Part shown: positions 7,983-9,128 of the stretch, piece by piece
Numbering within the stretch: position 1 is the stretch's first letter
How the letters are laid out: each line of letters starts with the position of its first letter
Source of the DNA: Escherichia phage N4
Strand: one strand, 5' to 3'
Sequence record: NC_008720.1
Length of the DNA stretch: 64,000 nucleotides
Position numbers and translations under genes: made by a program
The notes under the pieces: generated by a model
Told to the model about the DNA's origin: nothing
What the model saw: the letters and a program-made list of their open reading frames with translations, nothing else
Database searches by the model: none

Positions 7983-8022
7983 TTTCTTGGGGTTAACGAC
8001 CCTTATTAATTCCTTATCCTTT

Positions 8023-8046
8023 GCCCTCCTATGGAGGGCTTTTTTA
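8023..8046 (+). terminator. Rho-independent terminator
   Basis: Stem GCCCTCC/GGAGGGC, loop TAT, then TTTTTT. Confidence 0.75.
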
Positions 8047-8056
8047 CGGAGTACAA

Positions 8057-8263
8057 ATGTTTAAGTTCTTAGACCTTATCTGGGCAGTCATTTTGCTGGT
8101 TGCTACAGGCTTTGTATATGGCTTCTTGCTCCCATCAATGGTGTCTGCTTTAGACAGCATCATTGTTGTTATGGGCTTGATAGTCTGTATTGTGTGGCCT
8201 CTTATCGTAGGCCGTATCGTTTATCTTACAGTTAAGAAAAGGATGAGAAGAAAACATGTATAA
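8057..8263 (+). CDS. Small two-helix membrane protein (68 aa)
   Basis: Two hydrophobic segments; ATG at 8057 with GGAG RBS; the track start 8021 lies inside the terminator hairpin. Confidence 0.5.
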   Translation: MFKFLDLIWAVILLVATGFVYGFLLPSMVSALDSIIVVMGLIVCIVWPLIVGRIVYLTVKKRMRRKHV

Positions 8264-9092
8264 GTACATTGCAGTAGCAATTGCAGGGCTAATCATTGCT
8301 CTAAGTTTAACGAGCTGCTATGACCGAGTTGAACCAGGTAATGTAGGTATTATCGTTAACCGTCTCGGTGAAGATAAAGGCGTGGAAAATGAGGTTAAAG
8401 GTGTAGGCCGTTACTGGCTCACTTGGAATGAAGAACTTTATACATTCCCGACCTTTAAGCAGATGAAGACCTATGATGGTCTGTTCTACTTCCAACTGTC
8501 TGATGGTACTCAGATAGGCCACCAGATGGCTATCAGCTATAAAGTAAATCCTACTAAGGTAACTAATATCTTCCAGACGTATCATAAGGGAGTTAATGAA
8601 ATTACCGAACAGGATTTACGCCAACGTATTGCTGATGTACTTAACAGGCAGGGTAACCTGATTAACACCGATACATTTATTGATGGTGGTAAATCTAAGT
8701 TACTGGATAGTGTCACGGACACAATCCGTAAAGAGATGGAACCAGTGGGGATTGATATTATTGCTATCTCCTGGATTGGTGCTCCTGAATACCCTGATAA
8801 CGTTAAACGTGCCATTAATGCCAAAGTAGAAGCTACTCAGAAAACTCTGCAACGTGAGCAAGAGATTCAGCAACGCGTAGCTGAAGCTAATATGGAACGT
8901 GAACAAGCTAAGGGTGTAGCAGATGCTATTCTGATTAAGGCTAAAGCAGAGGCTGATGCTATTCGTTTACGTGGTGAAGCACTCACCGAGAACCCAAATG
9001 TAATGCAACTGGAAGCCATTAATAAGTGGAATGGTACATTACCTACCACAATGATTCCTGGGGCTACTACACCTTTCGTTAATGTGAAATAA
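8256..9092 (+). CDS. SPFH/band-7 (prohibitin/HflK-like) lipoprotein (278 aa)
   Basis: N-terminal signal with lipobox-like LTSC; VEPGNVGIIVNRLG SPFH-type core; C-terminal coiled coil (EATQKTLQREQEIQQRVAEANMEREQAKG). Confidence 0.6.
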   Translation: MYKYIAVAIAGLIIALSLTSCYDRVEPGNVGIIVNRLGEDKGVENEVKGVGRYWLTWNEELYTFPTFKQMKTYDGLFYFQLSDGTQIGHQMAISYKVNPTKVTNIFQTYHKGVNEITEQDLRQRIADVLNRQGNLINTDTFIDGGKSKLLDSVTDTIRKEMEPVGIDIIAISWIGAPEYPDNVKRAINAKVEATQKTLQREQEIQQRVAEANMEREQAKGVADAILIKAKAEADAIRLRGEALTENPNVMQLEAINKWNGTLPTTMIPGATTPFVNVK

Positions 9093-9099
9093 CTAAGCA

Positions 9100-9128
9100 A
9101 ACCCACCATTACGGTGGGTTTATTTTTT
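9100..9128 (+). terminator. Rho-independent terminator
   Basis: Stem AACCCACC/GGTGGGTT followed by TATTTTTTG. Confidence 0.75.

Follow-up and report, generated by a model that had tools for sequence, protein, structure and literature searches.

SPFH cages are a very active structural topic, with structures of prohibitin, HflK/C, erlin, stomatin and flotillin appearing between 2022 and 2026, and the clients of the bacterial assemblies are poorly defined. FtsH-type proteases have SPFH partners, namely prohibitin and HflK/C, which act from the non-ATPase side; prohibitin lies on the membrane face opposite the ATPase domains of the protease. QmcA faces the cytoplasm, and to our knowledge HflK/C is the only SPFH complex of E. 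coli that faces the periplasm. Here we describe gp19 and gp20 of Escherichia phage N4, two adjacent genes for a predicted hairpin membrane protein and an SPFH lipoprotein. The pair lies on the + strand of the window, a 64,000-nucleotide (nt) stretch of N4 (NC_008720.1) in which all N4 positions below are numbered. We are highly confident of the identity of this pair and of its accessory status.

The closest described system is the prohibitin PHB1/PHB2 ring (PDB 8rrh, 9o9z, 9urz), which is the best match of gp20 both by profile (E = 2e-14 over residues 11–273) and by fold (E = 1.9e-14). The two share the same order of parts: an N-terminal membrane anchor, the SPFH domain, a long coiled-coil helix, and a C-terminal segment. 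Prohibitin differs in being a eukaryotic mitochondrial hetero-oligomer of two paralogues with a transmembrane-helix anchor, whereas gp20 comes from a single SPFH gene with a separate hairpin partner. Identity between them is only 15–18%. The HflK/HflC–FtsH complex of E. coli (PDB 7vhp/7vhq, 7wi3, 9cz2) is a periplasm-facing SPFH cage of the inner membrane in the same host as N4, and it has been tied historically to CII of phage lambda. Its fold match to gp20 ranges from ~1e-13 to 1e-10. gp20 uses a lipoprotein anchor instead of the type II transmembrane helix of HflK/C, is encoded by one SPFH gene rather than a K/C pair, and scores below the HflC equivalog model TIGR01932 (20.7 bits against a cut-off of 134.4).

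A third comparison is the SPFH–NfeD operon QmcA–YbbJ (PDB 8z5g), in which an SPFH gene adjoins the gene of a small integral-membrane partner, as gp20 adjoins gp19. QmcA and YbbJ are co-transcribed and physically partnered. gp19 differs from the NfeD partner in its length of 68 amino acids (aa) and in having neither an NfeD/OB domain nor a Pfam match, and gp20 is predicted to be periplasmic whereas QmcA is cytoplasm-facing.

Among phages, a small membrane open reading frame (ORF) directly upstream of an SPFH gene is found in Kayvirus (MbpV/MbpS), Det7 (gp57/gp58), and CcrMagneto (gp179/gp178), as in N4, but these upstream partners belong to PHROGs unrelated to that of gp19. Kayvirus MbpS differs further from gp20. 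It lacks a canonical lipobox (LLMC), so that its anchor is probably transmembrane, and its pair lies in the lysis module. T4 Imm and Sp and the Ltp lipoprotein of TP-J34 are small inner-membrane and extracytoplasmic membrane-anchored proteins, made early or from a prophage. They resemble gp19 and gp20 in this respect and have no sequence or fold relationship to them.

gp20 has the architecture of cage-forming SPFH proteins

gp20 (8256–9092, 278 aa) matches the Pfam family Band_7 (PF01145) over residues 24–210 (8325–8885) with 84.5 bits against a cut-off of 23.6 (E = 1.2e-23), and it matches phrog_200, ‘lipoprotein’, at 3e-94. An AlphaFold model built from 17 diverse phage homologues reached a mean predicted local distance difference test (pLDDT) score of 81. 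The model contains a signal helix, a beta-rich SPFH domain with strands across residues 22–97, helices, one 65-residue helix, and a short helix. The long helix is of the coiled-coil type and covers residues 181–245; the short helix follows at 247–257 (8796–9026 for both). Foldseek against the PDB returned prohibitin, HflK/C, erlin, stomatin, flotillin, QmcA, and major vault protein with probability 1.00. Full-length prohibitin was the best match, and the top entries are titled SPFH complexes or cages. The profile search also placed prohibitin first, with HflC, QmcA, HflK, and erlin at ~1e-8. Pfam, AlphaFold, and Foldseek thus agree on the domain, and gp20 is a genuine member of the SPFH superfamily.

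Beyond the helices lies a C-terminal family motif, K-W-N-G-x-L-P (9024–9044), in which W258, G260, and P263 are each conserved in at least 90% of members. With SPFH domain, coiled-coil helix, and C-terminal motif, gp20 has the complete architecture of cage-forming SPFH proteins. By analogy with the solved cages, which have this architecture in common, we infer that gp20 may assemble into a ring or cage.

The N terminus carries a predicted signal peptide that ends in the lipobox L-T-S-C21 (8256–8318), which would provide the N-terminal membrane attachment expected of an SPFH protein. C21 is invariant in 17/17 homologues and is one of only four invariant columns of the alignment. gp20 is predicted to be exported and lipid-anchored via Cys21, and the cleavable lipoprotein signal peptide predicts that its SPFH domain is exposed to the periplasm. 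Aspartate at position +2 of a lipoprotein is the classical Lol-avoidance signal for retention in the inner membrane. Most enterobacterial homologues of gp20 have this residue (C-D-R). The N4-like ones read C-Y-[DEQ], and N4 gp20 itself has Tyr at +2 and Asp at +3. Tyr at +2 reportedly acted as a retaining residue in a reporter screen.

gp19 is a predicted hairpin whose gene overlaps gp20

gp19 (8057–8263, 68 aa, ATG start) is predicted to be a helical-hairpin inner-membrane protein. AlphaFold models it as two helices, residues 4–29 and 34–66, with a pLDDT of 86. The loop between them is free of basic residues and the C-terminal tail is basic (KKRMRRKH), which suggests that the turn faces the periplasm. 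Both termini are predicted to lie inside (N-in/C-in), which would leave the conserved tip in the periplasm and the basic tail in the cytoplasm. The family has a signature at the turn, P-x-[LM]-[IV]-S-x-x-[DSN]-[ST]-I-x-V-x-x-G, represented in gp19 by residues 26–40 (P-S-M-V-S-A-L-D-S-I-I-V-V-M-G, 8132–8176). P26 is invariant in the family, and S30 and G40 are conserved in at least 90% of it.

gp19 matches phrog_1130 (‘membrane protein’), which PHROGs places in the category ‘moron, auxiliary metabolic gene and host takeover’. It has no Pfam, NCBIfam, or PDB family. When gp19 was searched together with 12 relatives, no Pfam family was found at E <= 0.01 apart from scattered chance matches, and no NfeD/OB domain was found. 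A profile search nevertheless recovered 1099 cluster representatives; the best 150 of these 1099 are all 45–133 aa long.

The two ORFs overlap by 8 nt (8256–8263), the gp20 ATG beginning at 8256 and the gp19 stop codon TAA occupying 8261–8263. This overlap is consistent with translational coupling. A Shine–Dalgarno sequence, GGAG, can be read at 8048–8051, 5 nt 5' of the gp19 ATG at 8057. A longer gp19 ORF starting at a TTG at 8021 was rejected, its start falling within the terminator upstream. Homologous pairs overlap by 1–20 nt or are spaced by at most 3 nt, and ATGA or 8-nt overlaps are typical of them. The record of phage Jura already uses the names gp19 and gp20 for two ORFs, on the basis of BLAST to the N4 proteins YP_950497 and YP_950498.

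An intrinsic terminator lies on each side of the pair. The one after gp18 (8023–8045) has a 7-bp GC-rich stem, a 3-nt loop, and a run of six T. Its hairpin, GCCCTCC-TAT-GGAGGGC (8023–8039), folds at -13.6 kcal/mol (z = -4.1). The one after gp20 (9099–9128) has a 9-bp stem, a 5-nt loop, and one A before six T. Its hairpin, AAACCCACC-ATTAC-GGTGGGTTT (9099–9121), folds at -14.3 kcal/mol (z = -4.6). None of 200 shuffled sequences folded as well as either hairpin (0/200 each). An earlier reading of this DNA, made from the sequence only, had proposed a two-helix membrane protein and an SPFH lipoprotein with a coiled-coil tail, encoded with an 8-nt overlap between two strong terminators. All of these elements are borne out here, and the structural models do not show an outcome that would have spoken against that reading, the absence of an SPFH fold.

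The two genes form a linked and widespread accessory module

Linkage was followed in both directions. Seventeen loci were taken from 700 phage records encoding a gp20 relative; in 11 of them the SPFH gene is preceded by a gp19-family ORF, and in Seunavirus a 54-aa ORF stands between the two. In IMG/VR, which served as an independent sample, all loci with enough upstream sequence have a gp19-like ORF directly upstream of the SPFH gene (78/78). The reverse look-up, from distant gp19 relatives, found a Band_7 gene immediately downstream in each of the informative contigs (4/4). The gp19–gp20 pair is an obligate, strictly linked, and co-inherited two-gene module.

More divergent SPFH proteins belong to the wider family. 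Det7 gp58 and Kayvirus MbpS score to phrog_200, and proteins of crAss, CcrMagneto, and PUTH1 align with gp20. Each of these phages has a small membrane ORF upstream of its SPFH gene, assigned to other PHROGs or to none. Some such upstream ORFs are unannotated in public records, namely 2756–2944 in Stx2_95 and 2754–2957 in crAss cr128_1. A fifth gp19-family contig (GCA_949077605.1, 2501–3687) was also seen. There, the ORF, lengthened to 133 aa, borders on a resolvase/Tn3-type transposon, and the SPFH gene is missing, which suggests that an insertion disrupted the module.

The pair is present in Enquatrovirus and Moovirus. Megablast of 7600–9400 recovered 14 Enquatrovirus coliphages at 98.2–98.7% identity, some with the region at the same coordinates. 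Gamaleyavirus lacks the pair at the same site, though it keeps gp17, gp18, and gp24. Relatives occur in ~700 sequenced phages and in >500 IMG/VR contigs. Virulent carriers include Kayvirus, Seunavirus, Kolesnikvirus, phiCbK-like phages, crAss-like phages, and Lak megaphages. Temperate carriers include lambdoid Stx prophages, temperate phages of Klebsiella, Pseudomonas, and Burkholderia, and P1-like phage-plasmids. The hosts extend to Gram-positives, Bacteroidota, and Caulobacter. Among 5426 complete E. coli genomes, a relative of the Stx-prophage version was found in 536 (~10%), located in prophages or on P1-like plasmids, and PGAP names this protein ‘SPFH domain-containing protein’.

The accessory status proposed by the sequence-only reading therefore stands, the pair being present in two N4-like genera, absent from a third, and present in unrelated phages. 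Nor does the pair fit the description of a conserved core gene whose structural role is known. Besides the absence from Gamaleyavirus, a Vi01-like proteome gives the SPFH lipoprotein a retrieval count of 3, against 311 for the highest protein of the table.

In temperate phages, the pair lies between the cI repressor gene and xis-int, oriented as int, in an early-left (pL-type) operon. In temperate phages and prophages, no promoter or terminator belonging to the pair itself was found. In a P1-like phage, the pair lies just upstream of the ban helicase gene, and according to the P1 record the stretch upstream of ban is under the C1-controlled Pban promoters. P1 Plp/Upl were considered as homologues and rejected: P1 plp encodes 125 aa on the opposite strand and is unrelated, and the P1-like phage has the pair in the same variable slot. 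The predominance of virulent carriers and the genomic position in temperate phages point to a role in lytic growth rather than in lysogenic conversion.

The protein sequences are strongly constrained. Between N4 and Moo19, the ratio of nonsynonymous to synonymous rates (dN/dS) is 0.077 for gp20 and 0.125 for gp19, compared with 0.20 for the core AAA ATPase gene gp24. Both genes are under purifying selection, tighter than that on gp24. A similar contrast is seen with four N4-like IMG/VR contigs of 75–77 kb (L022–L025), in which gp20 is 63–81% identical to the N4 protein and the product of the adjacent core gene gp24 only 34–38%. Recent horizontal transfer, first suggested by gp20 identities of 79–81% in phages with so divergent a gp24, was considered as an explanation and rejected, because synonymous sites of gp20 are saturated between N4 and L023 (pS ~0.68) and constraint explains the identity equally well. 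The contrast may reflect either unusually strong constraint or an old lateral transfer.

Terminator bracketing is a regional feature

The sequence-only reading had gone further and described the pair as a terminator-insulated, independently transcribed accessory insertion. The accessory part holds; the claims of insulation and separate transcription go too far. Further + strand terminators were found at 493, 1079, 2522, 6680, 7620, 13109, and 14830. The one at 6680 (-19.8 kcal/mol) follows the gene of the phage RNA polymerase II (RNAPII, also written RNAP2), and the one at 7620 follows gp17, so that 6680–9128 comprises three successive terminator-bounded units: gp17, gp18, and gp19–gp20. Moo19 shares this layout. 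Since the neighbouring units end in terminators as well, the bracketing belongs to the region as a whole and does not set gp19–gp20 apart. Viewed as a possible moron, the pair is flanked by terminators in N4 and Moo19, but no flanking terminators were found around it in more distant N4-like phages, nor flanking signals in prophages. The GC content of the pair (0.39–0.42) equals that of its flanks, which disposes of a compositional island, and an Rfam scan of the locus returned nothing near the gathering score.

The T-run of the upstream terminator is separated from the gp19 Shine–Dalgarno sequence by 2 nt. No sigma-70-like promoter was found between the terminator at 8023 and the gp19 start codon. 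The sole candidate, a 10-of-12 site at 7942–7970, was rejected, as it sits inside gp18 and upstream of that terminator. The search used here is of the sigma-70 type and does not score N4 RNAPII promoters. N4 middle genes are transcribed by RNAPII, which needs as its minimal promoter only AT-rich sequence between -7 and +2. N4 middle RNAs have been described as overlapping transcripts (PMC4496689). Together, the 2-nt gap, the lack of an evident promoter, and the overlapping middle transcripts indicate that the description ‘insulated, independently transcribed’ was overstated.

Several further observations concern these signals. Over positions 1–20000, sigma-70-like promoter matches are scarce (31 vs 57.2 ± 6.9 in shuffles) and terminator-like sites are in excess (29 vs 12.7 ± 4.2 in shuffles). 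The base right after the T-run of nine strong + strand terminators (493–14860) is A in seven and G in the others. It is pure conjecture that such T-run/A junctions might double as RNAPII middle start sites; equally conjectural, transcription beginning at A8046 would leave gp19 with a leader of 11 nt that includes the GGAG. Within the gp19 coding region, a terminator-like hairpin with a poor T-run (8192–8217) is present in Moo19 too (4052–4077 of its locus). It encodes the conserved W-P-x-I-x-G-R segment of the second transmembrane helix and is probably a by-product of coding.

Genes around the pair

Upstream of the pair are the gene of the RNAPII large subunit, which ends at 6674, gp17 (6726–7598), which encodes a Hoc-like Ig protein, and gp18 (7668–7982), which encodes a P22 gp17-like protein (PF17420). 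Downstream are gp21 (9155–9379, 74 aa), gp22 (9381–9737), which encodes an HNH endonuclease, and the core AAA ATPase gene gp24. gp21 has a sub-threshold match to the zinc-finger family zf-UBP (E = 1e-3, 19.8 vs 22.7 bits) and is absent at the corresponding position of Moo19.

The P22 gp17-like gene adjoins the pair in N4, Moo19, and Det7. The order of P22 gp17-like gene, small ORF with two transmembrane segments, and SPFH lipoprotein gene recurs in Det7 (gp56–58, 2501–3818 of its locus), an unrelated myovirus of the genus Kuttervirus, whose gp57 and gp58 are too diverged for tblastn. A three-gene module that includes gp18 was rejected: a gp17-like gene stands beside the pair in only 6/108 loci, and each occurs alone, so gp18 and the pair are independent units.

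HNH endonuclease genes repeatedly adjoin the SPFH pair in unrelated phages. Besides gp22, they were found at 4999–5349 in Moo19 and at ~2150–2800 in contigs L022–L025, and in further loci at 3787–4422 (L014), 4606–5043 (L007), and 1935–2330 (L106). N4 gp22 and its Moo19 counterpart are 90% identical in protein sequence, compared with 62–66% for core genes. Homing-associated spread of the neighbourhood of the pair is possible.

A proposed inner-membrane assembly and its alternatives

In the model that we propose, gp20 would be held on the periplasmic face of the inner membrane and would oligomerise, as prohibitin, HflK/C, erlin, stomatin, and QmcA do, so that a ring or dome closes off a patch of membrane. 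gp19 would dock by its conserved periplasmic tip and supply the transmembrane palisade that the lipid-anchored gp20 lacks. The complex would be produced during lytic growth, from the middle-gene region in N4 and from the early-left operon in temperate phages. The assembly would enclose its membrane patch and capture or regulate a host inner-membrane client, for which the FtsH protease is the leading candidate. We lean slightly towards a periplasm-facing SPFH ring with gp19 as its partner. The whole explanation, a translationally coupled accessory module that forms an inner-membrane SPFH assembly with a client, we regard as evenly balanced. FtsH as that client is a tentative proposal by analogy, and on balance doubtful. 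It leads the candidates because the closest families, prohibitin and HflK/C, both work with FtsH-type proteases, and because of the periplasmic orientation that sets HflK/C apart in E. coli.

Several observations weigh against parts of this proposal. Tyr rather than Asp at +2 makes an outer-membrane location of N4 gp20 possible. gp20 differs from HflK/C in the three ways given above: the sub-threshold HflC equivalog score, the single SPFH gene at the locus, and the missing HflK/C-type transmembrane helix. FtsH would be tied to the pair by family resemblance alone. As to gp19, a Rosetta-stone test found no gp19–SPFH fusion among the best 150 of its 1099 relatives. The upstream partners of phrog_200 members span six different PHROGs and are not conserved throughout, and that of phiEa104, alone among the divergent members, is soluble.

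The alternatives concern the downstream purpose of the pair and are mostly compatible with a cage. Superinfection exclusion, in which an early pair of envelope proteins would stop later phages from bringing in DNA or penetrating the membrane at the interface of periplasm and inner membrane, is unlikely, although it accounts for several features. T4 Imm and Sp, P22 SieA, and the Ltp lipoprotein offer analogies. Both proteins are predicted to reside in the envelope, their genes lie in early or middle regions, and the PHROGs category of gp19 includes morons and host takeover. Carriage by prophages and P1-like plasmids in about a tenth of complete E. coli genomes would suit exclusion as well; expression of the pair from the repressed state is doubtful, however, as no promoter of its own was found in prophages. 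The P22 gp17-like gene that adjoins the pair in N4, Moo19, and Det7 goes by the name ‘superinfection exclusion’, but this link is weak, given its rarity across the loci surveyed and the separate occurrence of each module. gp19 and gp20 have no homology to known exclusion proteins. PADLOC returned no match for gp19, gp20, or gp18 and no defence or anti-defence family, and defence or anti-defence homology was set aside on this result. The spread over phages of Gram-positives, Bacteroidota, and Caulobacter argues for a universal target rather than a specific entry route.

A role in membrane integrity or against abortive infection is distinctly unlikely. Here, the SPFH assembly would stabilise the inner membrane or counter depolarising defences until progeny are complete. 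Cellular SPFH proteins act in membrane stress responses; one example is B. subtilis YdjI, which links PspA to the membrane (PMC8581546). Production of the pair during lytic growth by many virulent phages fits such a role, as does the strong purifying selection on gp20. The Psp-linked SamI/YdjI is described as cytosolic, whereas gp20 would face the periplasm, and the PADLOC result counts against anti-defence here too.

Control of lysis timing is very unlikely. It would make gp19 a holin- or antiholin-like hairpin and gp20 the organiser of a microdomain in which holin accumulates. The idea draws on Kayvirus, whose MbpV/MbpS pair is flanked by the endolysin gene and tgl, and on Det7, where a spanin gene precedes the pair by four genes. 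The authors of the Kayvirus work noted MbpV as holin-like and speculated about a helping role in Tgl secretion (PMC7150955). gp19 itself has a weak match to Phage_holin_3_6 (E = 0.038), but at 14.5 bits this is far under the cut-off of 28.4. N4 and most other phages have the pair among early or DNA-metabolism genes rather than lysis genes; the N4 neighbours are the RNAP2, Hoc-like, gp17-like, HNH, and AAA ATPase genes, and in temperate phages the pair belongs to the early-left operon.

A part in the lysogeny decision, with gp20 imitating HflC/HflK to adjust how FtsH degrades a CII-like regulator, is extremely unlikely, and implausible for N4: the resemblance of gp20 to HflK/C, the pL-type operon position in lambdoid prophages (lambda has cIII in its pL operon), and published speculation all speak for it, but N4 and most carriers are virulent and have no such decision to make, and gp20 falls short of the HflC equivalog cut-off.

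Implications for annotation and function

Parts of this picture were on record. Existing annotations of PMBT57, VEc25, and Moo19 include the SPFH domain; in Moo19 the two products are entered as ‘similar to phage N4 gp20, predicted HflC’ and ‘membrane protein similar to N4 gp19’. A literature search on SPFH and phage, covering the 30 top-ranked of 85 papers that mention both, turned up no functional work on such a phage protein. Authors have speculated about an HflKC-like influence on lysogeny (PMC8540360, PMC10269572) and, elsewhere, about a part for a phage SPFH protein in adsorption and DNA entry. What is new is the identification of the two genes as N4 gp19 and gp20, the strict two-way linkage to a large uncatalogued family of hairpin proteins, the lytic-phase genomic context, and the reduction of terminator insulation to a regional feature. 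The outcome is an annotation refinement, not a discovery: the pair is real, widespread, and strongly constrained, and its SPFH part was already recorded.

Public records also name gp20 homologues ‘serine protease’, ‘putative transposase’, and ‘transferase’, names that misfit an SPFH protein, and one upstream partner is labelled ‘putative capsid protein’. The odd labels occur among the records of OLB145, vB_Eco_AL25, Stx2_95, phi1026b, SPARTY, EspYZU08, and PUTH1, and are probably wrong. In practice, N4 gains a firm annotation in which gp19 and gp20 belong together, along with caution over labels such as ‘serine protease’ and ‘transposase’.

A broader reading, which we consider doubtful, is that gp19 and gp20 represent a class of SPFH cages peculiar to phages, lipid-anchored, facing the periplasm, and equipped with a dedicated hairpin partner, which capture a host inner-membrane machine as a general device for host takeover, exclusion, or anti-defence. 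If true, the captured machine could be FtsH, a stator-type complex, or a membrane defence complex, and the device would be common to hundreds of virulent and temperate phages across bacterial phyla. With its two genes, the phage version is compact and could offer a tractable way into SPFH cage function, and the pair may reveal how phages manipulate the inner membrane.

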